DNA of 32,000 bases from Paraconexibacteraceae bacterium (GTDB taxonomy: Bacteria > Actinomycetota > Thermoleophilia > Solirubrobacterales > Solirubrobacteraceae), in assembly GCA_963759825.1 (NCBI GenBank), contig CAVXAS010000007.1, positions 71,421 through 103,420 on the forward strand, given 5' to 3'. Positions 6,770 through 31,826 of the stretch are shown piece by piece. Position 1 is the first letter of the stretch. Each line of letters begins with the position of its first letter. The notes under the pieces are model-generated. The model made no database searches, was not told where the DNA came from, and saw only the letters and a list, made by a program, of their open reading frames with translations. The translations under genes and the position numbers were made by a program.

Positions 6770-6779
6770 CCCATAACGC

Positions 6780-6793: not shown

Positions 6794-6813
6794 CCGTTAC
6801 GGCGTACCGGCAC

Positions 6814-8624: not shown

Positions 8625-8630
8625 GCGCGC

Positions 8631-9893: not shown

Positions 9894-9934
9894 GCCCGCG
9901 AGGATACGGCGGTCGTTCTGGGTACGCGGAGGTC

Positions 9935-11374: not shown

Positions 11375-11409
11375 CCGCCGAAGCCGGGGCCGTTCAGTAC
11401 GGTCGCAGC

Positions 11410-15520: not shown

Positions 15521-18265
15521 ATGCCCGACGCGCTCGCGCCATCATCGCGGCTCCTCGACCGTGTCGGCGAGCGCGATGCGCTGGAACGGCTCGTCGCGGA
15601 TGCGCGCCTGGGTCGCAGCCGCGTGCTGGTCCTCCGCGGCGAGGCCGGCGTGGGCAAGACCGCCCTGCTACGCCACCTATCTGCGGCCGCGGACGGATGC
15701 CGGATCGCGCTGGCGGCAGGCGTCGAGTCCGAGATGGAGCTCCCATTCGCCGGCCTGCATGCGCTGTGCGCCCCGATGCTCGATCAGCTCGAGCGCCTGC
15801 CAGGCCCGCAGCGCGACGCACTGAGCACGGCGTTCGGCCTGAGCGCAGGCCCGCCGCCGGATCGCTTCTTCGTCGGACTGGCCGTCCTGAGCCTGGTGGC
15901 CGACGCCGCCGAGGAGCGCGCTCTCGTCTGCATCGTCGACGACGCGCAGTGGCTCGACCGGGTGTCCGCGCAGACGCTCGCGTTCGTGGCACGTCGTCTG
16001 CTGGCGGAGCGGGTGGCGCTGGTGTTTGCGATGCGCGACTCCGGCGCAGGCGGCGAGCACAAGCTCGACGGGCTGCCCGAGCTCGTCATCGAGGGGCTGC
16101 CGGCCGACGACGCGCAACTCCTGCTGGACGCGACGATCGCCGGGCCGCTCGACGGGCGGGTGAGGGCACGGATCCTGGACGAGGCACGCGGCAACCCCCT
16201 CGCACTGATCGAGCTGCCGCGGGGATTGTCGCCGGCAGAGCTCGCGGGAGGCTTCGCGCTACCCGGCGCGCGCTCGTTGACGACGCGCATCGAGCACACC
16301 TTCCTGCAGCGCGTCCAGCCGCTGCCGCGCGACGCGCAGATGCTCCTGTTGACGGCGGCGGCCGAGCCGCTGGGCGATTCGAGCCTGCTGTGGCGCGCCG
16401 CCGCGTACCTCGGGATCGAGAGCGAGGCCGGGCGCCTGGCCGAGGCCGCGGGGTTGATCGAGCTCGGTCCGCGCGTGCTCTTCCCGCATCCGCTCGTCCG
16501 CTCGGCGGTCTATCGCGGGTCGGACCCGAGCGATCGCCGCGACGTGCACCGCGCGCTCGCCGAGTCGACCGACGCGGTCGCCGATCCCGATCGCCGCGCC
16601 TGGCATCGCGCACACGCCACGGTGGCGCCCGACGAGGCAGTTGCCGCCGAGATGGTGCGCTCGGCCGACCGCGCACAGCGCCGCGGTGGGCTGGCTGCAG
16701 CCGCCGCGTTCATGCAGCGCGCGGCCGAGCTGACACCAGCGCCGACGGTGCGAATCGAGCGCGCGCTTGCCGCGGCGCAGGCGAAGCTCGACGTCGCCGA
16801 CACGGTCGCAGCGGCACAGCTCCTTGCTGACGCTCAGCTCGAGCCTGTGGACGAACTGCAACGCGCGCGGCTGGAACGCCTGGGCGCGCAGATCGTCTTC
16901 GCCAGCCAGCGCGGGCGCGACGCGCCGCCGTTGCTGCTCGCGGCGGCCAGGCGGCTTGATCCGCTCGACCCTGCGATGGCTCGCGAGACGTACCTCGAGG
17001 CGCTTGCCGCGGCGATGTTCGCCGGGCGCCTCGGCACCGGCCCCGATGAGTCGCAGGTGGCCGAGGCCGCGCGAGCGTGCCGTCAGGGACAGACCAAGAG
17101 CCCCGCCGACCTGTTGCTCGGCGCCCTCGTCACGCGCTTCACGGACGGGTACGCGGCAGCCGTCGCGCCGTTCTCGCGGGCGTTCCGCGCGTTCGGCGGG
17201 CCCGACGCCGGCGGAGAGGACCGGCGCTGGCTGTGGCTGGCGTGTCGTTTCGCACAGGACCTCTGGGACGACGAGTCCTGGCACCTGCTTGCGACCCGTG
17301 GCGTGACGATCGCGCGGGAAACCGGCGCGCTGCATCTGCTTCCGAACGCGCTCAACTACCTGGCCGCACTCAACATCCATTCCGGCGATTTCGCCGCCGC
17401 TGCGTCGCAGGTCGACGAGGTGATCGCGCTCGAGGAGGCCACAGGGCTTCCGCCCCTGCGGTACTCGTGGGGCCTGCTGGCGACGGCTCGCGGCAAGGAT
17501 TCGCAGGAGGTCTACGACTACGCATGGAACAACTCGTCCGAGCGCGGCGAGGGTTCGGCTCATGGGATGTACTGGCGCTTCAGGGCGCTTCTGCACAACG
17601 CAAACGGCCGCTACGCCGAAGCGCTCAGCGATGCCCAGCGGGCATGCGAGCGCGAAGACGTCATGTCGTACGGCTGGGCGCTCGTCGAGCTGATCGAGGG
17701 CGCCGTTCGCGGCGGTGCGCCGGACGAGGCGGTGGTCGCGCTGGAGCGTCTCAGCGAGCGCACGCAGGCGAGTGGCACCGAGTGGGCGCTGGGGACCGAA
17801 GCGCGCTGCCGCGCCCTGGTGACCGGTGACGAGGCCCTCTACGAGGAGTCGATCGAGCGCCTCGGGCGCAGCCGCGCGGCCTACGAGCTCGCACGCAGCC
17901 GGCTCGTCTACGGCGAGTGGCTGCGGCGCGAGAACCGGCGCACGGACGCGCGCGAGGCCCTTCGCGCCGCCCACGAGAGCTTCAGCAAGATGGGGGCCGA
18001 GGCGTTCGCCGAGCGCGCCCGCCGCGAGCTCGTCGCCACGGGTGAGACCGTGCGCCGGATCACCGCCGAGACACGCGACGTCCTGACGGCTCAGGAGATC
18101 CAGGTCGCGCGGCTGGCGCGCGACGGGCATACGAATCCGGAGATCGGCGCCCAGCTGTTCATCAGCCCGCGCACGGTCGAGTACCACCTCCACAAGGTGT
18201 TCCGCAAGCTCAACGTCAGCACCCGCCGGGAGCTGCGCGACGTGCTCGCCGATCAGCCCGCCTGA
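15521..18265 (+). CDS. Large ATP-binding LuxR-family regulator (LAL/MalT-like)
   Basis: Walker A GEAGVGKTALL (15638-15661), a long helical/TPR-like middle region, and C-terminal LuxR HTH LTAQEIQVARLARDGHTNPEIGAQLFISPRTVEYHLHKVFRKLNV. Confidence 0.9.
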   Translation: MPDALAPSSRLLDRVGERDALERLVADARLGRSRVLVLRGEAGVGKTALLRHLSAAADGCRIALAAGVESEMELPFAGLHALCAPMLDQLERLPGPQRDALSTAFGLSAGPPPDRFFVGLAVLSLVADAAEERALVCIVDDAQWLDRVSAQTLAFVARRLLAERVALVFAMRDSGAGGEHKLDGLPELVIEGLPADDAQLLLDATIAGPLDGRVRARILDEARGNPLALIELPRGLSPAELAGGFALPGARSLTTRIEHTFLQRVQPLPRDAQMLLLTAAAEPLGDSSLLWRAAAYLGIESEAGRLAEAAGLIELGPRVLFPHPLVRSAVYRGSDPSDRRDVHRALAESTDAVADPDRRAWHRAHATVAPDEAVAAEMVRSADRAQRRGGLAAAAAFMQRAAELTPAPTVRIERALAAAQAKLDVADTVAAAQLLADAQLEPVDELQRARLERLGAQIVFASQRGRDAPPLLLAAARRLDPLDPAMARETYLEALAAAMFAGRLGTGPDESQVAEAARACRQGQTKSPADLLLGALVTRFTDGYAAAVAPFSRAFRAFGGPDAGGEDRRWLWLACRFAQDLWDDESWHLLATRGVTIARETGALHLLPNALNYLAALNIHSGDFAAAASQVDEVIALEEATGLPPLRYSWGLLATARGKDSQEVYDYAWNNSSERGEGSAHGMYWRFRALLHNANGRYAEALSDAQRACEREDVMSYGWALVELIEGAVRGGAPDEAVVALERLSERTQASGTEWALGTEARCRALVTGDEALYEESIERLGRSRAAYELARSRLVYGEWLRRENRRTDAREALRAAHESFSKMGAEAFAERARRELVATGETVRRITAETRDVLTAQEIQVARLARDGHTNPEIGAQLFISPRTVEYHLHKVFRKLNVSTRRELRDVLADQPA

Positions 18266-18304
18266 CGATGTAGCTGCTAGCGTGCGTCTCATGACGCTAC
18301 ATCG
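18266..18304. promoter_or_regulatory. 9-bp inverted repeat CGATGTAGC / GCTACATCG with a 21-nt spacer, candidate TA operator
   Basis: The arms are at 18266-18274 and 18296-18304. They bracket the candidate antitoxin start codons (GTG 18282, ATG 18291). Confidence 0.35.
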
Positions 18305-18566
18305 CGACGAAGAGGAGGTCGGCGTTCGCGCTTTGCACGATCGGTTGAGCGAGCACCTCGATCGCGTCGAGCAGGGCGTCGAGATCGTCGTGACGCGTCG
18401 CGGCAAGAGGGTTGCGCGCCTGTCGGCGATCGACCGCGACGAGGCGCTGGCAGAGCTCGTGCGACGCGGTCTCGTGCGCCTGCCCGAACGACCACGCTCG
18501 CGTCGCCGCGCGACAGTGGCTGCCAGAGGGTCTGTGTCTGATCTGGTGGCGGAGCAGCGGCGCTGA
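18282..18566 (+). CDS. vapB: Phd/YefM-type antitoxin
   Basis: VGVRALHDRLSEHLDRVEQGVEIVVTRRGKRVARL. It is a paralog of 11073-11342; both end in ...E(D/Q)RR. An alternative start is ATG 18291. Confidence 0.8.
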   Translation: MRLMTLHRDEEEVGVRALHDRLSEHLDRVEQGVEIVVTRRGKRVARLSAIDRDEALAELVRRGLVRLPERPRSRRRATVAARGSVSDLVAEQRR

Positions 18567-18982
18567 GGCTGTACTTCGACACCTCGGCGCTGATCAAGCT
18601 GATCGTCGTCGAGGACGGCTCGGATCTCGCGACCGAGCTGTGGAGCAGCTACCCGGCGTCCTCCAGCGTCCTTGCCTACCCGGAGTCGCGCGCGGCGCTG
18701 GCCGCGGCGCGGCGGGCAAAGCGCTTGACCGCCCGCGCCCACAACCGCGCGGTGGCGGAGCTCGATGCGCTCAATGCCGAGCTCGTGATCATCGGCGTCG
18801 ACGACCTCCTGGCCCACCGCGCCGGCGCGCTCGCGGACACGCACGCGCTGCGCGGGTACGACGCGCTGCATCTCGCAAGCGCTCTCGCGCTCGGTCCAGG
18901 GGAGACGATCCTCGTCACCTGGGACCGCGCTCTCAGCGACGCCGCCGTCGAGGCCGGCCTCGCGGTCGCGCCGGCCATTTGA
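18563..18982 (+). CDS. vapC: PIN-domain toxin (VapC-like) with no canonical start codon upstream of the catalytic Asp
   Basis: The frame opens at 18542 after a TGA and reads LRLYFDTSALIKLIVV...THALRGYDALHLASAL. The first ATG/GTG/TTG in frame is TTG 18725, which would delete the N-terminal half of the PIN domain. CTG 18563-18565 overlaps the antitoxin stop (CTGA). Confidence 0.8.
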   Translation: MRLYFDTSALIKLIVVEDGSDLATELWSSYPASSSVLAYPESRAALAAARRAKRLTARAHNRAVAELDALNAELVIIGVDDLLAHRAGALADTHALRGYDALHLASALALGPGETILVTWDRALSDAAVEAGLAVAPAI

Positions 18983-19009
18983 CGCCAAACCGGGAAACCA
19001 CGGTTTCCG

Positions 19010-20509
19010 ATGTGGGACAGTTGCGGCATGCAGCGAGCGAGCGGGGCGGGACCGCGGGTCGCCGTCATCGGCGCGGGCGTGTCGGGAATGGCGATGGGCC
19101 TTCGCCTGCTGAAGGCCGGGCGGGCGTTCGCGATCTTCGAGAAGGGCCCCGAGGTCGGCGGCACGTGGCGCGACAACCGCTACCCGGGACTGACGATCGA
19201 CGTGCCGTCGCCGCTGTACACGTTCGCCGGCCACCGCCACCCCGGCTGGCGGCGCTGGATGCCCGACCACCACGAGATCCTCGAGTACCACGCCGGCGTG
19301 GCGACACGGACCGGCCTGCGCGAGCACATCCGCTTCGACAGCGAGGTCATCGCCGCGACCTGGACGGGTGTGGCATGGGACGTCGAGACCGTCCGCGGGG
19401 ACCGCGAGACGTTCGACGTCCTCGTCTGCGCGTCGGGGTTCCTGCACCATCCGCGGATCCCGGACATCGAGGGGCTCGGGGCCTTCGCCGGTGAGCTCGT
19501 GCACTCGGCGCGCTGGCGCGACGAGATCGTCACCCGCGGGCAGCGCGTCGGCGTCGTCGGCAACGGCTCGACCGGGATCCAGCTGGTGTCCGCCCTCGCC
19601 GGCGTCGCGTCGCACGTGACGATGTTCCAGCGCACGCCGCAGTGGGTCTTCCCGTTGCCGAACTTCGACATCCCCGGCGTCGTTCGTGGCGCACTCGGGC
19701 TGCTGCCGAGGTCCAGCGACGTCCTCGTCGAGGGGATGGTCCGCTTCGCCGACTGGTTCGTCGGCGGCGCCTCGATCCGCGACGACTGGCGTCGCGCGAT
19801 CGCGCTACGCGTGGCGCGCCAGCACCTCGGCAGCGTCGCCGACCCCGAGCTGCGGGCGAAGCTGACGCCCCCTGACACGGTGCTGTGCAAGCGGCCCGTC
19901 GTCTCGTCGCAGTTCTACAAAGTCGTCCAGCGCGACGACGTGGCCGTGGTGACCGACCCGATCGAGCGCGTCGTCGCGGAGGGCGTCGTGACGGGCGACG
20001 GGACGACACACGCGCTCGACGTCATGGTCCTCGCCACCGGCTTCGAGGCGCACAACTACATGCGGCCGATCGCGATCCGCGGGGAGGACGGCCTCACGCT
20101 CGACGCGGCCTGGGCCAGCGGGCCGCACGGCTATCGCACCGTGTCGCTGACCGGCTTCCCCAACCTGTTCATGCTGATGGGGCCGCACAGCCCGCTGAAC
20201 ACGATCGCGATCCACGAGAGCGCCGAGCTGCAGAGCGACTACGTCATGCAGATGCTCGACGTGATCGGCCGCGGTGACGTCGTGTGTCTCCAGCCGACCG
20301 CCGCCGCGACCGAGCGCTGGCTCGACTACATCCGCGCGGGCGTGCCCGGAACGGTGTGGGCGAGCGGATGCAACAGCTGGTACCTGATGGACGGCGACAC
20401 GCCTGTGCTGTGGCCCTACGATCGCCGGGCCTGGCACGACACGCTGCGCCGCCCGGACCTCGCCGACTACGAGGTCCGCCGCGTCGAGGTTCAGGGCGTC
20501 TCGCAGTAG
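19010..20509 (+). CDS. Flavin-dependent monooxygenase, Baeyer-Villiger/FMO type
   Basis: FAD GxGxxG motif GAGVSG (19070-19087), then GGTWRDNRYPG. The fingerprint FAGELVHSARW fits FxGxxxHxxxW. A second dinucleotide motif is GNGSTG. An alternative start is ATG 19028. Confidence 0.85.
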   Translation: MWDSCGMQRASGAGPRVAVIGAGVSGMAMGLRLLKAGRAFAIFEKGPEVGGTWRDNRYPGLTIDVPSPLYTFAGHRHPGWRRWMPDHHEILEYHAGVATRTGLREHIRFDSEVIAATWTGVAWDVETVRGDRETFDVLVCASGFLHHPRIPDIEGLGAFAGELVHSARWRDEIVTRGQRVGVVGNGSTGIQLVSALAGVASHVTMFQRTPQWVFPLPNFDIPGVVRGALGLLPRSSDVLVEGMVRFADWFVGGASIRDDWRRAIALRVARQHLGSVADPELRAKLTPPDTVLCKRPVVSSQFYKVVQRDDVAVVTDPIERVVAEGVVTGDGTTHALDVMVLATGFEAHNYMRPIAIRGEDGLTLDAAWASGPHGYRTVSLTGFPNLFMLMGPHSPLNTIAIHESAELQSDYVMQMLDVIGRGDVVCLQPTAAATERWLDYIRAGVPGTVWASGCNSWYLMDGDTPVLWPYDRRAWHDTLRRPDLADYEVRRVEVQGVSQ

Positions 20510-23263
20510 CTAGGCGCTCTGCGCCACGGTCTCGCGCTGCGCCTCGCCCGGGAGCGGGAACCAGCGCATCCGCTCATAGGAGTCGGGCAGCACGGGGTCC
20601 TCGATCGGCGCCTCGTGCGCCAGCTGGGCCGGAAGCGACGCCACCAGCCGGCGCGCCGCCTCGAGCTGCTCGGCGAGAACCTGCTCGGGCGCCGTGGCGC
20701 GCTGGGCGTGGAACTCCATCGCCCCGCTCGCATACGACACGTCGTAGAGGCTGACCGGGGGACGGCTGCGCGCGTCGCGGTGGTGCCACAGGCCGGTGAA
20801 CGGATCGAAGCGGTACAGCGTCAGCAGCTTGGCGCCGTCGCGGGCGATGAGGTGGACGGCGTCGATCACGTAGTCGACGACCGCCGGGCTGACGAAGTAG
20901 TTGAAGTTCATCCGGAACCAGCCGAGCTTCGCGCCCTCATGGCCGGCCATCACCTCGCACAGCATCGCGTCGACGCTGTCGTCGTCGATCCCGCTCAGAC
21001 GTTGCATGTACGGCCCGGCGCAGAAGCAGCCGCCGCGCGCCTGGATCCCGAACAGGTCGTTGAGCACCGACACGACGAAGTGCGGATGCAGCATCCCGCG
21101 CGCGTGGCGCACGCCGAGCGAGACGATCGACAGGCGGGGGAGATCGGTGCTTCCGAGGATCTCGATGTTCGGGTCACGCGACCACGAGGCGATCGCCCGG
21201 CGGACGTGCGCCTCCTCGCGCTGTTCGATCGCGCGCGCGCCGACGGCGCTCTTGAGCTGGAACACCAGGCCGCAGCGGATCGACTCGACGATCGCGGGAG
21301 TGCCGGCCTCCTCGCGGTGCTCGTGCTCGTCGAGATAGCGCTGGGAGTCGGTGGTCACGAACGCGACCGTCCCGCCACCGGGAACTGTGGGCACCGGGCT
21401 GTCGAGCAGCGCGCGCTTGACGACGAGGACGCCGGGGGTTCCCGGTCCGCCGATGAACTTGTGCGGGGAGAGGAAGACCGCGTCCTTGAAGGCCAGGTGC
21501 CCGTCGGCGCCGTCGACGGCGGGGTTCATCTCGATCTCCAGATACGGCCCCGCCGCGGCGTAGTCCCAGAAGGACAGCGCGTCGTGACGGTGCAGCAGCG
21601 TGGCCACGGCGTCGACGTCGGTGATGATCCCGGTGACGTTCGACGCAGCCGAGAAGCTGCCGATCTTCAGCGACCGGTCGGCGTGCGCCTCGAGCTCGGC
21701 GCGCAGGTGGTCCTGATCCAGCCGCCCTTGGGCGTCCTCCCTGATGACGCGCACGTCGGCGATCGACTCGCGCCACATCAGCTCGTTGGAGTGGTGCTCG
21801 TAAGGCCCGATGAAGACGACCGGCCGCTCGTGCGCGGGGATCGCCGCCGACAGCCCGTAGCGCGCGTCGAGGCGCTCGGGGATGCGCAGGCCCAGCGCGC
21901 GCACGAGCTTGTCGATCGCCGCCGTCGCACCCGACCCGCAGAACAGCACGACGTCCTCGTCACAGCCGCCGACGGCCTCGTGGACGATTCGCCGCGCATC
22001 GTCGCGCAGGCGCATCGTCTGGCGCCCGGTCGCCGACGACTCGGTGTGGGTGTTGGCATACAGCGGGAGGACCTCGCGCTGGATGAAGTCCTCGATGAAG
22101 CTCAACGAGCGGCCGGAGGCGGTGTAGTCGGCGTAGACGATGCGCTTGGGACCGAACGGGCCCGGCAGCACGAGGTCGTCACCGATCACCGAACGCCCGA
22201 CGAGCTCGACCAGCGCGTCGCGTTCGCGCTCTCCCGGCTCGAGCTGGGAGGCCGGAGCGAGCAGGTCCGGTGACTCGACGGCGTCCTCGGCGGTGTTCGC
22301 AGCGCCCCTGGCGAGGAGCCGGGCGCGCGCGCCGTCGACCCGGTGCTGGGCCTCGATGAGGTTCGCGACCACCGCATCGAGGACGTCGAGGTGCAGCGGC
22401 GAGCGGCTGTCGGAGAGCTCGTCGAGCGTGTCGGCGCTCAGCTCGAGCAGGACGGCGTCGCCGAGCGCGCAGCAGGTCGCGCTGCGGGTCCCGCGGTCGA
22501 CCAGCGCGAGCTCGCCGAACGCCTTGCCGGGCCCGAGCGTGCCGAGACGGTGGTGGCGCCCCTCGCGCGCGACCGCGACCTCGATCATCCCGGCGGCGAC
22601 CACGAGCAGCGAATCGGCGCCCTCCCCCGCGGCGAACACGACCTCGCCGTCGCTCACGGCACGCTCGGACATGCGCTCGAGCAGGCGCTCGAGGTCCTTG
22701 TCGGCGACACGTTCGAAGAAGGTGCAGCGGCGCAGGACCTGCAGTCGCGCGCGGTCCGCGGGCCGTCGCCGCGCCGGCGCGCGCCGCTCGGCGGGGGCGC
22801 CGCCGGCGTCGGCGGCGTCGCCGACGGCGTCGGTGCTGCTGCGCACACGCGCGCAGAGCTCGCGCGCCAGTCGTGCAAGCACCTTGTGCGCGAGCGGGCG
22901 GCCGAGCTTGCGCATGACGCGGAAGTCCGCGGTGTCCAATGCAAAGCCGGATACCGGCTCGAGTGCGATCACCGTCGCGGTGTGGCGGCTCGATCCGTTG
23001 AGCGCCGCCTCGCCGAGGATCGCCCCAGGTCCGCTCACCGTCAGCGGAACGACCGCACCGTGTCTCGTCGCGTGCACCGCAAGGCGTCCCTCCGTCGGCA
23101 GGAACAGGCGGTCGGCGGACGCGCCCTGCCGGAAGAGGATGTCCCGCGCCGCGAGCTCGAACGGGCGCAGCATCCCGGCCAGCTCCGTGCGCTCGGCCTC
23201 GTCGAGATCGGCGAACAGGGACGCGCCGGCGACCGCCTCCGGCGCCCAGTGATGCGCGCTCAT
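20510..23263 (-). CDS. Fusion protein: two cNMP-binding domains plus a class V aminotransferase/cysteine-desulfurase-fold PLP domain (917 aa)
   Basis: ATG 23263 overlaps the upstream stop (ATGA). CNB1 spans aa ~15-125 (GEAALNGSSRHTATV). CNB2 spans aa ~175-285, with the canonical phosphate-binding cassette FGELALVDRGTRSAT (22475-22519). The PLP domain starts at about aa 370: YADYTASGRSLSFIE, YANTHTESSATG, and the PLP lysine in SPHKF (codon 21458-21460). The ORF extension 23264-23569 is Arg-rich junk. Confidence 0.85.
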   Translation of the reverse strand: MSAHHWAPEAVAGASLFADLDEAERTELAGMLRPFELAARDILFRQGASADRLFLPTEGRLAVHATRHGAVVPLTVSGPGAILGEAALNGSSRHTATVIALEPVSGFALDTADFRVMRKLGRPLAHKVLARLARELCARVRSSTDAVGDAADAGGAPAERRAPARRRPADRARLQVLRRCTFFERVADKDLERLLERMSERAVSDGEVVFAAGEGADSLLVVAAGMIEVAVAREGRHHRLGTLGPGKAFGELALVDRGTRSATCCALGDAVLLELSADTLDELSDSRSPLHLDVLDAVVANLIEAQHRVDGARARLLARGAANTAEDAVESPDLLAPASQLEPGERERDALVELVGRSVIGDDLVLPGPFGPKRIVYADYTASGRSLSFIEDFIQREVLPLYANTHTESSATGRQTMRLRDDARRIVHEAVGGCDEDVVLFCGSGATAAIDKLVRALGLRIPERLDARYGLSAAIPAHERPVVFIGPYEHHSNELMWRESIADVRVIREDAQGRLDQDHLRAELEAHADRSLKIGSFSAASNVTGIITDVDAVATLLHRHDALSFWDYAAAGPYLEIEMNPAVDGADGHLAFKDAVFLSPHKFIGGPGTPGVLVVKRALLDSPVPTVPGGGTVAFVTTDSQRYLDEHEHREEAGTPAIVESIRCGLVFQLKSAVGARAIEQREEAHVRRAIASWSRDPNIEILGSTDLPRLSIVSLGVRHARGMLHPHFVVSVLNDLFGIQARGGCFCAGPYMQRLSGIDDDSVDAMLCEVMAGHEGAKLGWFRMNFNYFVSPAVVDYVIDAVHLIARDGAKLLTLYRFDPFTGLWHHRDARSRPPVSLYDVSYASGAMEFHAQRATAPEQVLAEQLEAARRLVASLPAQLAHEAPIEDPVLPDSYERMRWFPLPGEAQRETVAQSA

Positions 23264-24270
23264 GCCGGCGCCCCCGCGGCCATGCGCGACCGCGCTCGCT
23301 CGGCAATGTCGAGGCTCCTGATGAGGTCGGCCTCGATCGCCGCTGCGAACGCGCGCGAGCGCGCGCCGGGCGAGCGCAGCAGCCGCGCGAAATCGTCGCG
23401 GTCGATCGCCAGGATCAGTGACCGCTCGCGCGCCACCGACGACACCGGCGCGGGCTCGCCGTCCAGCAGGCCGACGTACCCGAAGGCGCGGCCCGGGCCG
23501 GCGAAGCCGACGCGCGGATCGCCCCGGCGCGGGACGTCCTCGACGGCGCCATTGAGGGTGACGTAGCACGCCTGCGGCTGCGTCCCCACGTGCTGGACAA
23601 CATGCCCGCGCGGGACGCAGAGCAGCCGCCCGCGGGCGAGCAGGTCGGCGACGAGCTCAAGCTCGAGCTGCTCGAACATCGCCAGGCGCGACAGGTAGGA
23701 GATCGGCGGCACCGCCGCCACCGGCTCTGATCGCGGCCTCTCGGTGGGGCCGGCGCGGCGCGGCTCGATCGCGTCCACCGTTGCCGCGAACTCGGCCAGC
23801 CTGCGGCGCAGGCGCGCGCACGCGATCGCGACGATGCGCCGCCGCAGCTCCAGTGCGCTCTGCTGGCCCGACGCCGTGCGCGCCTCGAATTCCGGCCGGC
23901 TCAAGAACAGCAGCGAGCACGGCCCGAGCGCTCGCACCGTCGCCGTGCGAGTACCGCCGCCCAGCAGCGGCAGCTCGCCGAGCACTTCGCCGGCCCCGAG
24001 TCGCGCGAGCTCCAGCTCGCGCTCCCCCGGGAGCCGCCGGCACACATGGACGATGCCCTCGAGCAGGACGTACAGGCCATCGGACGGCGTCGTCTGCCGC
24101 CACAGGATCTCGCCCGCGTCCAGCTCGATGCGCTTGAAGGCCGACGCGAAGTCGGCCAGGTCGTCGTCGCTGAGACCGTGGAAGAGCGGGATGGCGGCGA
24201 GCAGCCCGGCGGGACCCGTGGCTCGCCGTCGGCGTGCGACGGCGATGTCGGCGACGGCGAAGTCAGACAT
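23260..24270 (-). CDS. Stand-alone tandem cNMP-binding domain protein (336 aa, no HTH)
   Basis: Domain 1 reads IPLFHGLSDDDLADFA...GEVLGELPLLGGGTRTATVRAL, an intact PBC. Domain 2 reads LAMFEQLELELVADLL...GRAFGYVGLLDGEPAPVSSVA, a PBC lacking the Glu and Arg. No DNA-binding or enzymatic domain is visible. Confidence 0.85.
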   Translation of the reverse strand: MSDFAVADIAVARRRRATGPAGLLAAIPLFHGLSDDDLADFASAFKRIELDAGEILWRQTTPSDGLYVLLEGIVHVCRRLPGERELELARLGAGEVLGELPLLGGGTRTATVRALGPCSLLFLSRPEFEARTASGQQSALELRRRIVAIACARLRRRLAEFAATVDAIEPRRAGPTERPRSEPVAAVPPISYLSRLAMFEQLELELVADLLARGRLLCVPRGHVVQHVGTQPQACYVTLNGAVEDVPRRGDPRVGFAGPGRAFGYVGLLDGEPAPVSSVARERSLILAIDRDDFARLLRSPGARSRAFAAAIEADLIRSLDIAERARSRMAAGAPA

Positions 24271-25186
24271 CGAGGTCGACCGTCTCCAGAGACAGCCCGT
24301 CGGCGTCGCGGGTGACGCTCAGAAGCGAGTACTCAGGGACCTCGAGCCACGTCGCGGTGTCGGCGGTCAGCGGCTCGGAGGCGATCATCAGCGACTGCGG
24401 CCGGTCGTCGCTGGCGAGCATCTGCCAGCCGTCCTCGTGGTCGACGTATGACCGGCCTGCCGTGTACCAGAGGCTGACGTAGGGAAGGTCGAGCTCGAGC
24501 ATCGGATCGTCGCTCGGATACCAGCCGTAGTCCATGGCGAAGCGCGTGGCCACGAGGCAGCGGCTGGTCGCCAGGAAGAGGTTCAGCGGTGAGCAGGTGT
24601 CGATGCCGTGGCGGGCGCGCGCGTCGCGCAGGATCTGCAGCACGGCGATCGTTGCCTCGACGAGGTCGGCCGCCGCGGGCTCTGCGGCCCGGTCGCCGAG
24701 CTGCGCCAGCAGCAGCGCGTAGATCCACTCCGAGTCCGTGGTCCCGCTGATGTGCCGGCTCACGGACTTGGGCAGGTGCTCGACCAGGTCGTAGCGCATC
24801 GCGTGGAAGTCGCGCAGGTGGCCGTTGTGGGCCATCACGAAGCCGGCGCCGGGGAACGCGAACGGATGCAGGTTGAGCTCGGAGACGACGTCGTCCGAGG
24901 CCCAGGTGACGCCGCGGACGTGCGCGAGCAGGCACGTCGGGGCGAGCTTGCGGCTCATGCTCTGCAGGTTGCGGTCGTAGTTGGGCAGCGCCGTTACGCG
25001 GTAGGTGAAGGGCTCGTCCCCGTGGACGGACCGGTCATCCCAGGCCGCGAGGCCGAAGCCCGCGAGGTTCAGGAACGAGTCCATCATCCGCGGGCGGTAG
25101 CACTGGTGCACGAGCGAGCTGTCGGTCTCGTAGAGGATGCCTTCGAGCGAGACGGGCTCACCGAGATATCCGAGGACGCGGCACAT
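24263..25186 (-). CDS. Class II (Ntn) glutamine amidotransferase-fold amidohydrolase, EgtC/YafJ-like
   Basis: The protein starts Met-Cys (MCRVLGYLGEPVSL; Cys codon 25181-25183), the hallmark N-terminal nucleophile. A GGAG SD lies about 11 nt upstream. It overlaps the next gene by 8 nt. Confidence 0.85.
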   Translation of the reverse strand: MCRVLGYLGEPVSLEGILYETDSSLVHQCYRPRMMDSFLNLAGFGLAAWDDRSVHGDEPFTYRVTALPNYDRNLQSMSRKLAPTCLLAHVRGVTWASDDVVSELNLHPFAFPGAGFVMAHNGHLRDFHAMRYDLVEHLPKSVSRHISGTTDSEWIYALLLAQLGDRAAEPAAADLVEATIAVLQILRDARARHGIDTCSPLNLFLATSRCLVATRFAMDYGWYPSDDPMLELDLPYVSLWYTAGRSYVDHEDGWQMLASDDRPQSLMIASEPLTADTATWLEVPEYSLLSVTRDADGLSLETVDLDV

Positions 25187-25201
25187 GGTCTTACAGCTCC
25201 G

Positions 25202-25732
25202 CTAGCCGTCGCTCGGCCGTGCCGGCAGCTGGCACACGCCGCCGGCGCAGACCATGTCGGGGTCGTTGCTCTTCCATCCACGCTGCACGAGCCGGCGGTG
25301 CAGCTCGCAGCCCAGGCAGAGGCCGAGGGCGGTCTCCATCCACATCAGCGTCAGGCAGATCGCGCACAGCGTGGCCGGCAGGGCGCCGCGGATGCCGCTG
25401 TTGGTGATGATCGTCATCGCGAACGCCATCCCGAGCCCGAGGTGCCAGGCGAACATCTTGGGCTCGGCGGAGACCCAGTCGGGCGGGTAGCGGCGCGTCA
25501 GCCGGTGAGCGGCGACGCCGACAGGGCTACGGCGGATGCCGAACCTCGTCCTGACCAGGAACTCGACGAAGAAGAACGACGCCGCGGCCTGAAGCGGCAG
25601 GTATGCCTGGTCGAAGAACGCCAGGCAGAACCCGACGGCGCCGATCACCAGGGTTATCCCGGCTGCTGCACGCACGGCGTGCTCGTTGACGACGTCGTCG
25701 GCGGGCTCGATCGGGGTGACGACGGTGGACAT
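25202..25732 (-). CDS. Multi-pass membrane protein, DUF4395-like, with C-terminal Cys motifs
   Basis: About four hydrophobic helices. C-terminal CAICLTLMWMETALGLCLGCELH and CAGGVCQ. The family call is from memory of the conserved CxGC. ATG 25732 is preferred over TTG 25759, which lies inside the intergenic repeats. Confidence 0.65.
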   Translation of the reverse strand: MSTVVTPIEPADDVVNEHAVRAAAGITLVIGAVGFCLAFFDQAYLPLQAAASFFFVEFLVRTRFGIRRSPVGVAAHRLTRRYPPDWVSAEPKMFAWHLGLGMAFAMTIITNSGIRGALPATLCAICLTLMWMETALGLCLGCELHRRLVQRGWKSNDPDMVCAGGVCQLPARPSDG

Positions 25733-25755
25733 GTGCGCATGTCTACTCGCGCGAT

Positions 25756-25784
25756 GCAACCCGATCGCAACCCGAACGCAAGCG
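25756..25784. promoter_or_regulatory. Three direct heptads with exact 11-bp phasing (GCAACCC GATC GCAACCC GAAC GCAAGCG), candidate SARP box
   Basis: The heptads start at 25756, 25767 and 25778, in the divergent spacer between the cNMP/PLP operon and the SARP-family regulator gene. Confidence 0.5.
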
Positions 25785-25818
25785 CTTGGAACGCGCCTAC
25801 CGTGGGTACTCTTGCCCG

Positions 25819-27819
25819 GTGAGCGCGCAGGGGCTGGGGATCCGGCTGCTCGGGAGGCTGTCGATCGACCGCGAAGGCGACACGGCCCCGGCCGGGTTCT
25901 CCGGCCGGCGGTCCGAGCTCGTCTTCGCCTACCTCGTCACCGAGCACCGTCGCGACGTCAGCCGCGACGAGCTGGCGGACGCGCTCTGGCCGCAGGAGCT
26001 GCCAGACGCCTGGTCAGCCGCCCTGCGCAGCGTCGTCAGCGACGTTCGCCGGGTGATCGGCGCCACCGGCCTGGACCCAGGAGAGCTGCTGGAGCACACC
26101 GGCGGCGGCTACCGCCTGCAGCTGCCGTCCGATGCGGTGGTGGACGTGGAGGAGGCGCGCTCCGCGCTCGCGGCTGCGCGAGCGACCGTCGAGGAGGATC
26201 CCGCGGGTGCAGCCGCCCACGCAACGCGCGCGGCTGAGCTCGCGCGGTTGCCGTTCCTGCCGCGCCACGAGGGCGACTGGGTCGACGGGGTGCGCCGCGG
26301 GCTCGCCGAGATCCTGGTGGAGGCGCTCGAGGTGTCAGCGGGCGCACACGCCCGCGCTGGTGACGCACGCGCTGCCGCCGCCGCGGCGGCGCGGCTCGTC
26401 GAGGCCGAGCCCTACAGCGACGCGGCGCACCGCCTGCAGATCGAGGTCCTAGGGACCGTCGGCGATCGCGCCGGCGCGCTGCGCGCGTTCGAGCAGTGCC
26501 GCACGACGTTCGCCGAGGAGCTGGGCGTCGAACCGTCCGCCCAGACGCGGGCCGCGCTGCAGCGCGCGCTCGACGCGACCACAGGCGTCCGCGCGCCGGA
26601 CACACCGGCGGCGCGGACCACCTCCCCGTTCGCCGCCCTGTCGGTGCTGGTCGTCGAAGACCACGACTTCCAGCGCCGCACGGCGGTCACGCTGCTGGAC
26701 CGGCTCGGCGTCGGCTCGCTCGCCGAAGCGCCGGATGGCGCCGCCGCACTCGAGCTGCTCGGCAGCTCGGCGCCGCCTGACGTGATCGTCTGCGACGTCG
26801 ACATGCCGGGAATGGACGGCGTCGAGTTCATCCGGCACGTCGCCGAACGCGGGCTTGCGAGCGCGGTCGTGATCGCGAGCGGGCTCGATCGCAGCGTGTT
26901 GCAGGCGGTCGAGGCGGTCGGCGAGGGGTATGGGCTCCAGGTCCTCGGGGCAGTCGAGAAGCCGTTGACCACGCGCCGGCTGTCGGAGCTGCTGGCCTCC
27001 TACCGGCGACCTCCGCCGCCACACGATCGCGCCGATCACGTCGCAGTGACCGACGCCGAGCTGCGTGCCGCGCTCGATGACGACCGGATCGGCGCGCATT
27101 TCGTCCCGATCGTCGACCTTCAGGCCGATGCCTTCAGTGGTGCGGAGGCCGTCGCCACGTTGCAGAAGGAAGCGGGCGGGCCGGTGAGCCTCGTCAGCGC
27201 GCGGATCGGCACCGACCTGGCTGCGCGCCTCACGGATCACGTGCTCGGCCTGGCGTGTGACCAGTTCGGCGAGCTCACCGCCGCGGGCACGGAAGCCGAG
27301 TTGTGGATCTCGATCGCCGAGCGCACGCTTGCCGACGTGGACGGCGTCGACCGTCTGCTCGCCGTCGTTCGTGACCGCGGCGCCGATCCGCGCCGGATCG
27401 TCCTGATGGTCGGCGAGCGCGCGGTGCGCCACAGTACGGCGGCGGAGCTCGACGTGCTGACGCGGCTGCGCGTGAAGGGCTTTGGCATCTGCCTCGACGA
27501 CGTCGGCGGGGGGCATGCAAGCGACGACGCTCGCGCGCGCATCCCGCTCACCGCGGTGGCACTGGCGCCGGCGCTGGTCCACGGAGCGGCGCGCGAGCCG
27601 GCCGCTGCGTCGGAGCTCGAGGACGCGATCGAATCGATCCGGGCGCACGCGCTCCAGACGCTGGCGCGCGGCTGCGACGACCCCTCCGACTACGAGCTGC
27701 TGCTTCAGGCGGGCTGCAGCCACGCGCAGGGCGAGGTCATCGCCGGGGCGCTGCCGGCCGGTGAGCTCGCCGTGTGGGCGCGCGACTGGCGGTCGCCCGC
27801 GATCCCGGGAACGCGGTGA
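25819..27819 (+). CDS. SARP-type (OmpR-like wHTH + BTAD) regulator fused to a receiver domain and a degenerate EAL domain
   Basis: wHTH: IRLLGRLSIDREG...SRDELADALWPQELPDAWSAALRSVVSDVRRVIG...GYRLQL. BTAD: ...AEPYSDAAHRLQIEVLGTVGDRAGALRAFEQCRTTFAEELGVEPS. REC: LVVEDHD, CDVDMPGMDG (Asp 26794-26796), IASG, EKPL. EAL-like: FVPIVDL, EAV (27145-27153), DDVGGG (27496-27513), AQGE. GTG 25819 is preferred; TTG 25786 is possible. Confidence 0.85.
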   Translation: MSAQGLGIRLLGRLSIDREGDTAPAGFSGRRSELVFAYLVTEHRRDVSRDELADALWPQELPDAWSAALRSVVSDVRRVIGATGLDPGELLEHTGGGYRLQLPSDAVVDVEEARSALAAARATVEEDPAGAAAHATRAAELARLPFLPRHEGDWVDGVRRGLAEILVEALEVSAGAHARAGDARAAAAAAARLVEAEPYSDAAHRLQIEVLGTVGDRAGALRAFEQCRTTFAEELGVEPSAQTRAALQRALDATTGVRAPDTPAARTTSPFAALSVLVVEDHDFQRRTAVTLLDRLGVGSLAEAPDGAAALELLGSSAPPDVIVCDVDMPGMDGVEFIRHVAERGLASAVVIASGLDRSVLQAVEAVGEGYGLQVLGAVEKPLTTRRLSELLASYRRPPPPHDRADHVAVTDAELRAALDDDRIGAHFVPIVDLQADAFSGAEAVATLQKEAGGPVSLVSARIGTDLAARLTDHVLGLACDQFGELTAAGTEAELWISIAERTLADVDGVDRLLAVVRDRGADPRRIVLMVGERAVRHSTAAELDVLTRLRVKGFGICLDDVGGGHASDDARARIPLTAVALAPALVHGAAREPAAASELEDAIESIRAHALQTLARGCDDPSDYELLLQAGCSHAQGEVIAGALPAGELAVWARDWRSPAIPGTR

Positions 27820-30347
27820 GCGCCGGCTCACATCGCCCGACGCTGTCGCTGCGGCGGCTGCTCGGGGTCCTGCTCGCGATCCTCGGGGCCCTCGTCGCCG
27901 CGCTGATCGTCGTCACCACGCTGCAGCTGCGCGGGTCCCAGTCGCAGGCCGATGCGGAGAACCGGCGCAGCGCGTCGTACCTGCTCGCCGACAGCATGCG
28001 CCGCAGCTCGAACGACCTGACGAACATGGTGCGGCTGTATGTCGCGACCGGCGAGCGTCGCTATCGCGACTACTACGCGGAGATCCTCGCCATCCGCAGC
28101 GGCACCGCCCGGCGCCCGCGCCACTACGACAGCTCCTTCTGGGACCGGGTCCTCGCCGAGGGCAAGGGCTTCGTCCGCTACGGGCCGCGCGAATCGCTCG
28201 TCGCCCAGATGCGCAAGGCCAACTTCACGCCCGCCGAGTTCCGCGCCCTCAACACGTCGCTCACCGCCTCCAACGGCCTCGCCAAGGTCGAGCTCGAGGT
28301 CATGGATCGCGTCGAGCAGCGCATCCGCCGCGGTCTCGACGACGCATACCTCGGCGACGTGGAGCGCGAGTATCGCCGGCTCGTCGACGCGGCCTACCTC
28401 GCCGACAAGGGCGTGATCATGGGCGCGATCGCCCGTTTCATCGACCTCGTCGACACCCGCACCCGGCGCGACGTCGAGGACGAGCGCGCGTCCAACGACA
28501 CGCTCTTCGCCATCCAGATCGCGATTCTCGTCGTGATCCTGCTCGTCGGCGTCGGCGCGATGGCGGTCATCTCGCGAGTCGCGGTCCGGCCACTCAGCAG
28601 GCTTGCGGAGGCGACGCGACGCATCGCCAGCGGCGACTACGAGGAGCGCGCCGACGTCCACGGCGTCGCCGAGCTCGAGCAGGTCGCCGGCGCGTTCAAC
28701 GAGATGGCCGCGTCGATCCAGTCCGACATCGCGCGGCGCGAGCGGGCTGAGCACGATGCGACCGCCGCGCGCATGGCTGCCGAGGAGGCCAGCCGCGCCA
28801 AGTCGGCCTTCCTGGCCGCGATGAGCCACGAGATCCGCACCCCGATGATGGGCGTGACCGGCATGCTCGAGGTCCTCAACCGGACCCAGTTGTCACCGGC
28901 GCAGCGCCACATGGTCGCCACGGCCGACCGGTCGGCGCAGTCGCTGCTGCACATCATCGGTGACGTCCTGGACTTCTCGAAGATCGAGGCCTCCAAGCTG
29001 CAGCTCGCCCCGGCGACCTTCGACCTGCGAGCGGTGGTCAACGCGGCGGCCGAGACCTTCCGCCACACCGCGTCGGCCAAGGGGCTGCTGCTCACCAGCA
29101 GCGTCGAGGACGGGCTCGCGCCGGCGCACGTCGGTGACGCGCTGCGCCTGCGCCAGATCTTCACGAACTTCCTGTCGAACGCGGTCAAGTTCACCGCGGT
29201 CGGCGGCATCGAGATCGAGGCACGCGTCCTCGACACCTCCGACGAGCTGCAAGTGCTCGACATCTCGGTCACGGACACCGGCATCGGTGTCGCCCCCGCG
29301 CAGCAGCGCGAGCTGTTCACCGACTACACCCAGGCCGACGCGACGACCTCAGGGCGCTTCGGCGGGACCGGCCTCGGACTGGCGATCTGCCGGCGCCTGG
29401 CAGCGCTGATGGGCGGCGAGATCACGATGCAGAGCGCCCTTGCCCGGGGGACGACGATGCGCCTGACCGTGCCGCTGCCGATCGGCGATCCGGCGGACAT
29501 CGCCGCGCCCGTCGCGCCGGTCGCAGATCTTTATGCCCCCACGCGCCCGAAGCCCAGTCGCGAGCAGGCCCTGCGCGAGGGAAGCCTGCTGCTGATCGCC
29601 GAGGATCACGAGGTCAACCGCACCGTCCTGCGCCACCAGCTCGACATCATCGGCTTCGAGGCAGATTTCGCCGACGACGGCGAGCAGGCGCTCGCCCGCT
29701 ACCTCGAGGACCGTTACGCGCTCGTGCTGACCGACCTGAACATGCCCGGCCTCGACGGCTACGACCTCGCGCGCGCGATCCGCCGCCACGAGCATGAGTC
29801 GGGCGCCGTGCGAGTCCCGATCATCGCGCTCACGGCGAACGTCATGCAGGGCGTGCCGGAGCGCTCCCGCGAGGCCGGGATGGACGACTTCGCAACCAAG
29901 CCGACCACGATTCCGTTCCTCGCCGGCAAGCTGCGCCAATGGCTGCCGCAGCTCGACTGGGCGGACGAGCCAGACGTGCGGCCCGGACGGGACGGGGACG
30001 GTGTCGCGAACGCCGATGCGCTCGATCTTGCGGTGCTCGCAGAGGTCACCGGCGCCGACTCGGCGCTCGCCGCCTCGCTGATCAACGACTTCCTGACCAG
30101 CTCGCGCGCGGACCTGCAGATGCTCGAGGACGCGCTCGCCGCCGGCGAGCTCGACGACGCGCGCCGTCGCGCGCACCGCATCAAGGGCGCGGCGCGGATC
30201 GTCGGAGCGAACGCCGTCGCGACGCTGGCCCAGCAGATCGAGACCGGCGCGGCGTCGGGCGGCGACGTGCCGCAGTTGGCCACGCTGACCACGCGCCTGC
30301 ACGCCGCGCTCGCAGACTGCCAGGCGGCGACGGCCTTGGTGACCTAA
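27816..30347 (+). CDS. Hybrid sensor histidine kinase: TM, extracytoplasmic helical sensor, TM, HAMP, HisKA, HATPase_c, REC, HPt
   Basis: GTG 27816 overlaps the upstream TGA (GTGA). Two TM helices flank a sensor region of about 190 aa. HAMP: RPLSRLAEATRRIASGDYEE. H-box: FLAAMSHEIRTP (His 28827-28829). G-boxes: TDTGIGV and GGTGLGLAI. REC: LIAEDHEVNR...LTDLNMPGLDG (Asp 29733-29735). HPt: AHRIKGAARIVGA (His 30174-30176). Confidence 0.9.
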   Translation: MSAGSHRPTLSLRRLLGVLLAILGALVAALIVVTTLQLRGSQSQADAENRRSASYLLADSMRRSSNDLTNMVRLYVATGERRYRDYYAEILAIRSGTARRPRHYDSSFWDRVLAEGKGFVRYGPRESLVAQMRKANFTPAEFRALNTSLTASNGLAKVELEVMDRVEQRIRRGLDDAYLGDVEREYRRLVDAAYLADKGVIMGAIARFIDLVDTRTRRDVEDERASNDTLFAIQIAILVVILLVGVGAMAVISRVAVRPLSRLAEATRRIASGDYEERADVHGVAELEQVAGAFNEMAASIQSDIARRERAEHDATAARMAAEEASRAKSAFLAAMSHEIRTPMMGVTGMLEVLNRTQLSPAQRHMVATADRSAQSLLHIIGDVLDFSKIEASKLQLAPATFDLRAVVNAAAETFRHTASAKGLLLTSSVEDGLAPAHVGDALRLRQIFTNFLSNAVKFTAVGGIEIEARVLDTSDELQVLDISVTDTGIGVAPAQQRELFTDYTQADATTSGRFGGTGLGLAICRRLAALMGGEITMQSALARGTTMRLTVPLPIGDPADIAAPVAPVADLYAPTRPKPSREQALREGSLLLIAEDHEVNRTVLRHQLDIIGFEADFADDGEQALARYLEDRYALVLTDLNMPGLDGYDLARAIRRHEHESGAVRVPIIALTANVMQGVPERSREAGMDDFATKPTTIPFLAGKLRQWLPQLDWADEPDVRPGRDGDGVANADALDLAVLAEVTGADSALAASLINDFLTSSRADLQMLEDALAAGELDDARRRAHRIKGAARIVGANAVATLAQQIETGAASGGDVPQLATLTTRLHAALADCQAATALVT

Positions 30348-31077
30348 CGAGCGACGGCGCTACCTCGGCCAGTCGGGCGGCGATCGGGATCGCGACGGTC
30401 GCGAACAGCCCGAACGCGCCCGCCACCCGCAACGGAAGGAACCCGGCCGCGACGGCGATCGCCATGCAGGTGAGCGCAAACGCCGTGACCCACACGATCG
30501 GATGCGTCTGGTGCGGAAAGCGAAACCTGCCGAGCATCAACGCCGACACGGCGAGCAGCCCGGCGATCGTGAGCGCCGGCGCCAGCTCGAGCCCGAGGAC
30601 GGCGAGCACCGCGAGCCCCCCAACCGGGGACGTGACGCCGGTGAAGCCGTCCGCGGGGGCATGCGGCGCCGCCGCATGACGCGCCAGGCGCACGACGACC
30701 GCGACGACGTGCGTCGTCGCCGCGGCCAGGAAGACCGCGCCGGTGAGCGAGGAGTGTCCGAGGCCGGCCACCGCAATCAGCAGCGCCGGAGCGACACCGA
30801 AGGCGATCGCGTCCGACATGCCGTCGAAATGGTCGCCGAGGCCGCTGCTCCACGTGTAGCGGGCGACGATCCCGTCGGCCACGTCGCACAATGCGCCGAG
30901 CCCGATCAGCGCCATCGCCAGCTTCAGCTCGTACACCTGGATCCCGTCGGTGAGCTCAGCAGGGTTGGCGGCCCAGTACCGCACGAGGATCGCGATCGCG
31001 AGAAACCCGAGAGCGGCGCTGGCGAGCGTCACCAGGTCGGCGGGGCTGAGGCGGCCGCTCGGCCGTCGGCTGTTCAT
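30181..31077 (-). CDS. pssA: CDP-alcohol phosphatidyltransferase, phosphatidylserine synthase-like
   Basis: DGIVARYTWSSGLGDHFDGMSDAI matches D-G-x2-A-R-x8-G-x3-D-x3-D. Multi-pass membrane profile. The start overlaps the psd stop. The last ~55 codons are Arg/Pro-rich and antisense to the kinase gene. Confidence 0.85.
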   Translation of the reverse strand: MNSRRPSGRLSPADLVTLASAALGFLAIAILVRYWAANPAELTDGIQVYELKLAMALIGLGALCDVADGIVARYTWSSGLGDHFDGMSDAIAFGVAPALLIAVAGLGHSSLTGAVFLAAATTHVVAVVVRLARHAAAPHAPADGFTGVTSPVGGLAVLAVLGLELAPALTIAGLLAVSALMLGRFRFPHQTHPIVWVTAFALTCMAIAVAAGFLPLRVAGAFGLFATVAIPIAARLAEVAPSLVRSPRPSPPGSLRARRAGAWSAWPTAARRRPTPRRSRSAGPASRRRSLRRSAPRP

Positions 31078-31727: not shown

Positions 31728-31826
31728 CCCGAACGCAATCGCGTGCCGAGGCCGCCCGTGGCGCGGGGCGCGTGCGGTTGCGCCCCGCTTGCGCGTGCGT
31801 TGCGGGCCGCCGCGTAGAAGTGGCGC

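Follow-up and report, generated by a model that had tools for sequence, protein, structure and literature searches.

A 32,000-nucleotide stretch from the genome of a soil actinobacterium of the Paraconexibacteraceae (class Thermoleophilia; GenBank assembly GCA_963759825.1, contig CAVXAS010000007.1, forward-strand positions 71,421 to 103,420; hereafter the window) was found to carry, on its minus strand at window positions 20510-25732, four closely packed genes, here called A, B, C and D. They combine four cyclic-nucleotide-binding (CNB) domains with what is best described as a cysteine desulfurase-type pyridoxal 5'-phosphate (PLP) enzyme, an N-terminal nucleophile (Ntn) amidohydrolase and a cysteine-rich membrane protein. 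We propose, with middling confidence, that the operon is a ligand-gated sulfur-mobilising module in which a gamma-glutamyl-cysteine-type compound would be converted to cysteine and the sulfur of cysteine then to persulfide or sulfide.

Open reading frame (ORF) calling on the window, which has a G+C content of about 72%, showed that the four minus-strand ORFs fill the interval, and their domains were assigned with Pfam. Gene A (25202..25732, or from a possible TTG start at 25759) encodes a DUF4395 protein of 176 aa (84 bits) and gene B (24263..25186) a 307-aa protein that starts with Met-Cys and carries GATase_4/GATase_6 domains. The 336-aa product of gene C (23260..24270) consists of two cNMP_binding domains only (122.6 bits), and the 917-aa product of gene D (20510..23263) has two such domains (119.3 bits) followed by an Aminotran_5 domain at residues 376-756 (130.9 bits). 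The Pfam gathering cutoff for PF00027 is 27.5 bits, and the domain E-values, 1e-12 to 1e-38, lie well outside what chance would give. Third-position GC was 0.88-0.94 in B, C and D; gene A is supported instead by its DUF4395 match. The junctions were read directly from the sequence: 15 nt including GGAG (cggagctgtaagacc) separate A from B, the stop of B and the start of C overlap by 8 nt (ATGTCTGA, 24263-24270), and C and D share an ATGA as stop and start codons (23260-23263). Pfam detected no helix-turn-helix (HTH) domain in the operon proteins, no riboswitch or other RNA element was found in 18000-28000, and a promoter and terminator scan of the operon gave nothing above chance. An earlier interpretation, made from the letters of the DNA (the sequence-only reading), had described a single four-gene minus-strand unit with these junctions and with four CNB domains but no HTH. 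These coordinates and overlaps bear it out, as do profile searches, which recovered CNB, Aminotran_5, class II GATase and DUF4395 domains, and the motifs that it quoted (FGELALVDRGTRSAT, GELPLLGGGTRTATV, SPHKF and CLGC) are present in the proteins.

The PLP module of D occupies residues ~346-800 and is followed by a conserved C-terminal extension that runs to residue 917. A sequence search of the PDB returned SufS-type cysteine desulfurases as its nearest solved structures. In the D-SufS alignment K602 corresponds to the Schiff-base lysine, in agreement with the earlier placing of the PLP lysine in SPHKF, the E489-H-H-x-N segment (H490/H491) to the PLP-stacking histidine motif and D567 to the aspartate that contacts the pyridine nitrogen. 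The segment R743-G-G-C746-F-C748 aligns to the R-x-G-H-H-C loop of SufS, with its arginine at position -5 from the cysteine. An alignment of 59 fusion proteins showed K602, C746, C748, R743 and R784 to be invariant, and the same five residues keep at least 90% conservation among 45 distant relatives with several domains. When the AlphaFold2 model of D (predicted local distance difference test, pLDDT, 78; predicted template modelling score 0.76) was submitted to Foldseek, the top 50 matches were all type II (SufS-type) cysteine desulfurases, covered from end to end with TM-scores of 0.77-0.84 by target.

The PLP domain had been taken for an EgtE-like C-S lyase, an identity that was rejected. 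D matches 17 NCBIfam families at E <= 0.01, which comprise desulfurases, selenocysteine lyase and CNB families, and EgtE is absent among them. This absence, the alignment to SufS with its conserved lysine, loop cysteines and arginines, the uniformly SufS-type Foldseek matches and the fusions to thiolation-type domains described below led us to abandon the EgtE-like lyase. As judged from sequence and model, the module is best regarded as belonging to a clade of its own, so far uncharacterised, within the cysteine desulfurase-type enzymes that form persulfides.

The joining of CNB domains to this module is not an artefact of the present contig. A database search gave more than 120 protein clusters of 880-930 aa, at 50-100% identity and with the same two Pfam families; the named ones come from Solirubrobacteraceae or Miltoncostaeaceae metagenome-assembled genomes (MAGs). 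Species-representative genomes with the fusion belong to Solirubrobacterales, Gaiellaceae and other Thermoleophilia, and include two Nannocystis MAGs and one alphaproteobacterial MAG. Since the ~900-aa architecture recurs in more than 100 clusters and in several phyla, an origin by frameshift or missed stop codon was rejected and the claim of a genuine CNB-CNB-PLP fusion upheld. The further claim that this architecture has not been described agrees with the literature searched, where no description was found. The fusion already bears an automatic name at JGI, 'selenocysteine lyase/cysteine desulfurase/CRP-like cAMP-binding protein'; it is therefore present in public databases but unstudied.

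Residues ~346-917 of D correspond to a widespread stand-alone family of ~555 aa, 57-62% identical to D, that spans Actinomycetota, Myxococcota, Chloroflexota and Gemmatimonadota and gave 8,307 matches at E <= 0.001 in a library of representatives chosen at 50% identity. Among 45 long members of the family, 20 (for example P0274, 1057 aa) also contain a PP-loop ATP_bind_3 domain, whose fold is that of tRNA thiolation enzymes, and single members are fused to rhodanese or to thioredoxin. Sensor and signalling domains occur as well. P0252 (1413 aa) reads kinase-globin-CNBx2-PLP and P0243 (1363 aa) GST_C-hemerythrin-CNBx2-PLP, and in six Myxococcota loci (L025, L031, L039, L040, L045 and L062) a gene for a CNB plus Ser/Thr protein kinase protein adjoins a stand-alone D-type PLP gene; in L025 it lies at 8519-9907 on the minus strand, divergent from the PLP gene. 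These CNB-kinase neighbours are a second, independent link of the PLP family to CNB signalling, and the family appears to be targeted repeatedly by signalling domains.

In the window the stop codon of D is abutted base-to-base by the end of a convergent gene for an FMO-like flavin monooxygenase (19010-20509, plus strand). In a Marmoricola MAG, a homologue 35% identical to it (L077, 2379-3764) is the next gene, in the same orientation, after a stand-alone D-type PLP gene. The FMO-like enzyme could be a sulfur-oxidising partner, or its position a coincidence.

Pfam, NCBIfam and PDB searches agree that B is an EgtC/YafJ-type amidohydrolase with the class II amidotransferase fold (Ntn, with Cys2 as the nucleophile), in line with the sequence-only reading, which had also noted the Met-Cys start. 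Its closest solved relatives are 3MDN, an uncharacterised class II domain protein, and EgtC (4ZFJ), the match to EgtC covering residues 1-122 only (E = 1e-5). C2, R91, N105-x-H107-P108-F109, H120-N121-G122 and T150-D151-S152-E153 are invariant in 14 homologues; by this alignment B keeps the set of glutamine/gamma-glutamyl-binding residues of class II amidotransferases. The loci around B were collected as a set of 83 (80 metagenome loci and three long contigs), nearly all from one bacterial class. No genes of the egtA, egtB or egtD type were found in the annotation of the 32-kb window or as recurrent neighbours of B in this set, which fits the earlier idea of a sulfur and gamma-glutamyl theme without EgtB or EgtD.

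These data bear on another explanation, that the operon serves thiol biosynthesis or salvage of the EgtC/EgtE type, with B deglutamylating an S-conjugated gamma-glutamyl-cysteine and the PLP enzyme acting as a C-S lyase that releases the thiol. A gamma-glutamyl amidase followed by a PLP C-S lyase is an established logic, as in EgtC/EgtE of ergothioneine synthesis, and Cds1-type fold-II PLP enzymes are also capable of beta-elimination. EgtC (TIGR03442) is the best curated NCBIfam family for B, and a PLP relative of 852 aa, P0247, joins the PLP module to a class I GATase/Peptidase_C26 domain, so that an amidase not homologous to B is independently paired with a D-type PLP module. The score of B for EgtC, however, is 138.5 bits, below the cutoff of 218.65, no EgtB/EgtD-type gene was found among the annotated window genes, and D lacks an EgtE match in NCBIfam and has SufS-type structural matches throughout. 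Moreover, the invariant C746/C748 and the frequent fusions to PP-loop, rhodanese and thioredoxin domains are hallmarks of desulfurases that form persulfides, and a simple C-S lyase would not need them. On balance we consider thiol synthesis or salvage of this type unlikely.

The N-terminal half of D and the whole of C are tandem CNB modules paralogous to each other, with 28-31% identity along ~310 residues (tblastn), and in the PDB search the closest solved relatives of both were PKA RI/RII and PKG. In D the first domain (CNB1) spans residues ~16-135 and the second (CNB2) residues ~190-300, and residues 289-343 form a long helix and a disordered linker ahead of the PLP module. CNB2 holds the canonical cassette FGELALVDRGTRSAT, defined here as G-E ... 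R-[ST/A]-A with the arginine ten residues after the glycine. It matches the phosphate-binding cassettes of PKA RII position by position and has every canonical residue for contact with cAMP/cGMP, and across the 59 sequences G250 and R260 are invariant and E251 and A262 at least 90% conserved. A class III adenylate/guanylate cyclase gene lies directly after the fusion gene in L086 (14787-15548) and L003 (3351-3641), which are 96% identical there and were therefore counted as one lineage; its position fits an input by cyclic nucleoside monophosphate (cNMP). From these sequences nucleotide gating is well founded only for CNB2 of D. The description of C as a protein of tandem CNB domains reminiscent of a PKA regulatory subunit holds, and its first cassette is intact here as had been noted, but this intact state is the minority among its orthologues (see below).

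The four-gene unit as such, which had been expected to be conserved, is not the entity that recurs in other genomes. The conserved core is B plus C: C directly follows B in all 63 loci of the B-anchored set with enough downstream sequence. In 54 of these 63 the 8-nt ATG...TGA overlap of B and C is kept, down to 58% identity of B, which indicates that the two genes are translationally coupled and explains the invariant C-terminal Asp-Val of B.

Around this core the desulfurating enzyme varies. Long flanks on both sides are available for 17 loci, and 15 of these have one, and never more than one, of three unrelated cysteine-desulfurating enzymes. In one locus it is the D-type fusion, on the same strand as B-C; in nine it is a second, NifS-like Aminotran_5 family, convergent with B-C; and in five it is a PALP-fold Cds1 encoded upstream of B. 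L004 has B-C divergent from a fusion gene. The second Aminotran_5 family is 23% identical to D and has the motifs YGNPHS, SFYKMFGYPTG and RTGCFCN; the motifs SFYK.FGYPTG and RTGCFCN suggest that it may be MOCOS/ABA3-like, a tentative label. The PALP partner scored 619.6 bits against the NCBIfam family 'L-cysteine desulfhydrase Cds1', above its cutoff of 600. Cds1 (Rv3684) of Mycobacterium tuberculosis makes H2S from cysteine (PMC8389258), and the occurrence of its orthologues beside B-C in many sister loci ties the B-C core to cysteine desulfuration. Cds1 itself belongs to fold type II of the PLP enzymes, has no relation to D and does not occur in the window. Since non-homologous desulfurating enzymes are exchanged while gene order and strand change, these results suggest a functional partnership rather than frozen synteny.

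Protein A has four predicted membrane helices (AlphaFold2 model, pLDDT 79) and, in a 33-sequence alignment, six invariant cysteines in three pairs: C123xxC126 in the fourth transmembrane helix, C139xxC142, and C162x4C167 in the tail. The membrane protein with a CxxC motif (CLGC) that had been recognised at this position is thus a DUF4395 protein. By the positive-inside rule its cysteine-rich end would face the cytoplasm, and Foldseek found no structural homologue of DUF4395 (best E = 0.4). DUF4395 accompanies persulfide-type desulfurases in 15 loci (two with D-type and 13 with second-family Aminotran_5 enzymes), and also stand-alone D-type genes in L033 and L048; it is present in none of the 18 Cds1 loci. 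This pattern is consistent with A being an acceptor of enzyme-bound persulfide, since a desulfhydrase that releases free H2S would not need one.

A small DUF1059 gene (57 aa) lies divergently within 300 bp upstream of B in 48 of 69 loci (in L081 at 7745-7918). The window has no DUF1059 gene, and DUF4395 occupies that position.

Taken as a ligand-gated sulfur-mobilising module of two sub-modules, B with C and D with A, the operon would work as follows. B would cleave a gamma-glutamyl amide, for which the most economical substrate would be gamma-glutamyl-cysteine or an S-substituted derivative of it, and so release the substrate of the desulfurase. D would move the sulfur of cysteine, or of a close analogue, to the loop cysteine C748 as a persulfide, leaving alanine, and the persulfide may then pass to the cysteine-rich membrane protein A as acceptor or redox partner. 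A cyclic nucleotide bound at CNB2 of D would relieve or impose autoinhibition in cis through the helix-linker 289-343. C, presumably made in fixed ratio with B, would regulate B in trans as PKA R subunits do C subunits. A more specific version, in which a cyclic nucleotide, or a non-canonical ligand at the histidine-type sites, frees a gamma-glutamyl-cysteine hydrolase of the Ntn class from a PKA-R-like inhibitor and at the same time activates the fused desulfurase, which delivers persulfide sulfur to DUF4395 as a new class of cysteine-rich membrane acceptor, so that soil Thermoleophilia would possess a dedicated second-messenger-gated generator of sulfide or persulfide, is tentative and in our judgement somewhat improbable.

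Several observations weigh against the sulfur-mobilising module. The proposal was built entirely from sequence, models and gene context. D reaches 120.4 bits against the SufS family TIGR01979, whose cutoff is 475.1, so it is a member of the superfamily and not a SufS orthologue, and the SufS glutamine that contacts PLP O3' is replaced by alanine. There is no SufE/SufU/CsdE-type acceptor among the annotated genes of the window, in which the DUF4395 protein A is the only candidate acceptor encoded. None of the top 120 homologues of B is fused to a CNB domain, so that the putative B-C complex is argued from gene coupling.

The CNB sites raise a further difficulty. CNB1 of D has histidine in place of the phosphate-binding arginine in 10 of 12 sequences, and CNB1 of C, which carries the canonical arginine here, has arginine in 10 of 49 orthologues and histidine in 37. 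CNB2 of C is strongly conserved across these 49 and yet non-canonical (FGY...), lacking both the glutamate and the arginine. Three of the four sites are thus largely non-canonical, and their ligand may not be cAMP or cGMP. The proposal that the operon is controlled by cyclic nucleotides therefore stands for CNB2 of D, where the site is canonical across the family, and falls short at the other three. It may be that the CNB folds sense a different metabolite, such as a thiol or an amino acid, or act as dimerisation or autoinhibitory scaffolds, with the enzymes as described. Relatives of the CNB fold of the PrfA, NtcA and CooA type sense something other than a cyclic nucleotide, no cyclase gene lies within the 32-kb window, and the globin and hemerythrin sensors fused upstream of the CNB-PLP unit in relatives would suit such an input, as would the altered sites of C and of CNB1 of D. 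Against this, the canonical cassette of CNB2 of D is retained in full across the 59 sequences, genuine cAMP/cGMP receptors are the nearest solved structures for both modules, and in one lineage a class III cyclase gene directly follows D. CNB domains without a nucleotide ligand appear to us an improbable alternative.

Some loci separate what the sulfur-mobilising module joins. Six loci of other lineages (L005-L009 and L011) have the fusion but neither B nor C, and L082 and L127 have B-C but no desulfurase, showing that the two sub-modules are separable. L082 adjoins a sulfate-assimilation operon (1308-6784) with sulfite reductase, two PAPS_reduct-family genes, a TauE exporter and a CysN-like GTPase, and has a gene of the ornithine cyclodeaminase/alanine dehydrogenase family beside the B-C pair; L127 has no evident sulfur gene. 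In addition, as nearly all loci come from one class, part of the co-occurrence could be inherited synteny. These observations would fit genes that are neighbours by descent only, D being a regulated enzyme that acts on its own and B-C an amidohydrolase pair that shares no pathway with it; in keeping with this, no neighbour of the stand-alone PLP family is conserved in more than 6 of 80 loci. But start/stop overlaps tie B, C and D together here, and gene order and orientation differ between the partner classes: a desulfurating neighbour is retained in 15 of the 17 loci through changes of family, strand and order (same strand, convergent or upstream, and divergent in L004). The mutual exclusion of the three partners is likewise a pattern of functional replacement and not of frozen synteny. 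We regard descent without a shared function as very unlikely.

The sulfur-mobilising module shares single features with several known systems. The mycobacterial protein lysine acetyltransferase Pat/KATmt (Rv0998/MSMEG_5458), like D, has an actinobacterial CNB domain N-terminal to an enzyme; in Pat this domain autoinhibits the enzyme until cAMP binds. The CNB region of D matches the Pat structures 4AVA and 4ONU, with the NCBIfam Pat model below threshold; Pat, however, has a single CNB domain and not a tandem, its effector is a GNAT acetyltransferase and not a PLP enzyme, and no free CNB protein accompanies it. PKA RI/RII and PKG share the tandem CNB-A/CNB-B arrangement with C and D, and the trans-regulation proposed for the free tandem-CNB protein is the PKA principle. 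In contrast to PKA, the operon has no kinase partner, no docking/dimerisation domain or inhibitor sequence was identified, and one site in each tandem is non-canonical.

Of the desulfurases, SufS, CsdA and CsdB have the same fold as D over the whole SufS chain, with the lysine, histidine, aspartate, two arginines and loop cysteine in register. D differs from SufS in its low identity (~20%), the GCFC double-cysteine loop, an insertion of ~20 residues after that loop, the C-terminal extension and the N-terminal sensor domains. The EgtC-EgtE step of mycobacterial ergothioneine synthesis resembles B plus D in pairing an Ntn gamma-glutamyl amidohydrolase with a class V-fold PLP enzyme that acts on a cysteine-derived sulfur compound; D, however, is of the desulfurase type with a catalytic cysteine and not an EgtE, the ergothioneine pathway has no CNB regulation, and EgtA, EgtB and EgtD genes were not found in the window. 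Bd1971 (CNB-EAL) and the shells of family 2B encapsulins (with a CNB insertion) are, like D, bacterial CNB proteins with a non-transcriptional output, and gave sub-threshold CNB matches, whereas the operon has neither an EAL fusion nor an HK97-fold shell gene.

Family 2A encapsulins package a cysteine desulfurase (PMC8049743). A link to family 2 encapsulins was rejected: the shell model scored 61.6 against a required 400 bits and the cargo desulfurase model gave D 56.7 against 800, and no shell gene is present among the annotated window genes. An anti-phage role of the Pycsar or Dnd/Ssp type was likewise rejected, since the PADLOC matches lie only in the CNB region (~191-313) or are weak NifS-fold hits to DndA/SspA (27-30 bits), with no partner genes.

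Bacterial cAMP and cGMP are known to act mainly through transcription factors, with few direct targets: an acetyltransferase, an EAL phosphodiesterase, channels and Pycsar effectors. The principle of a CNB-controlled enzyme is known from PKA/PKG, mycobacterial Pat and Bd1971; what would be new is the PLP effector and the coupling of a free tandem-CNB protein to an Ntn amidohydrolase, neither of which was found in the literature searched. The literature on DUF4395, on DUF1059, on CNB with a class V aminotransferase, on CNB with a glutamine amidotransferase and on cAMP with a cysteine desulfurase, as far as searched, gave no account of the present system. If the proposal is correct, sulfur mobilisation as persulfide or H2S would join the processes under direct second-messenger control. 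The more specific version, if true, would supply the first PLP-enzyme effector of a cNMP, the first metabolic hydrolase regulated in trans in the PKA manner in bacteria, and a direct connection between cAMP and H2S or persulfide. The system is abundant in soil metagenomes, with thousands of B homologues and hundreds of fusion proteins, and is modular in having three interchangeable desulfurating enzymes. It would also offer functional leads for DUF4395, DUF1059 and the large uncharacterised SufS-related PLP family. Its parts, all soluble enzymes or small proteins, lend themselves to expression and assay.

Two regulatory genes follow on the plus strand beyond the operon. The first (25786..27819), divergent from the DUF4395 gene, encodes by Pfam a regulator of unusual architecture, with Trans_reg_C (OmpR-type winged HTH), BTAD (SARP-type), receiver and EAL domains. 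The second (27774..30347), which overlaps it by 46 nt, encodes a hybrid histidine kinase (HAMP-HisKA-HATPase-REC-Hpt) that is its probable partner. The regulator gene adjoins DUF4395 also in L081 and L084; the kinase is conserved in L081, and the pair partly so in L084. The two proteins may control transcription of the operon, and the pair suggests a c-di-GMP or two-component input, with its membership in the system uncertain. Large LuxR-type regulators (AAA_16 ... GerE, ~915-950 aa) occur within a few kb of B-C in the window (15521-18265, plus strand), in L081 (2192-5053) and in L127 (11418-14255), three loci that otherwise differ in arrangement.

The window also contains ordinary toxin-antitoxin modules, represented by a Phd/YefM antitoxin and PIN toxin pair (18282-18566 and 18542-18982, plus strand) and a FitA-like ribbon-helix-helix protein (5614-5862, plus strand). 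An 879-aa protein with an nSTAND1 NTPase and a WD40 beta-propeller is encoded at 2033-4672 (plus strand). Other genes encode a TetR protein (6745-7422), a DUF899 protein (9776-10651), a GST (11368-12054) and a phosphatidylserine decarboxylase (31074-31847, minus strand).

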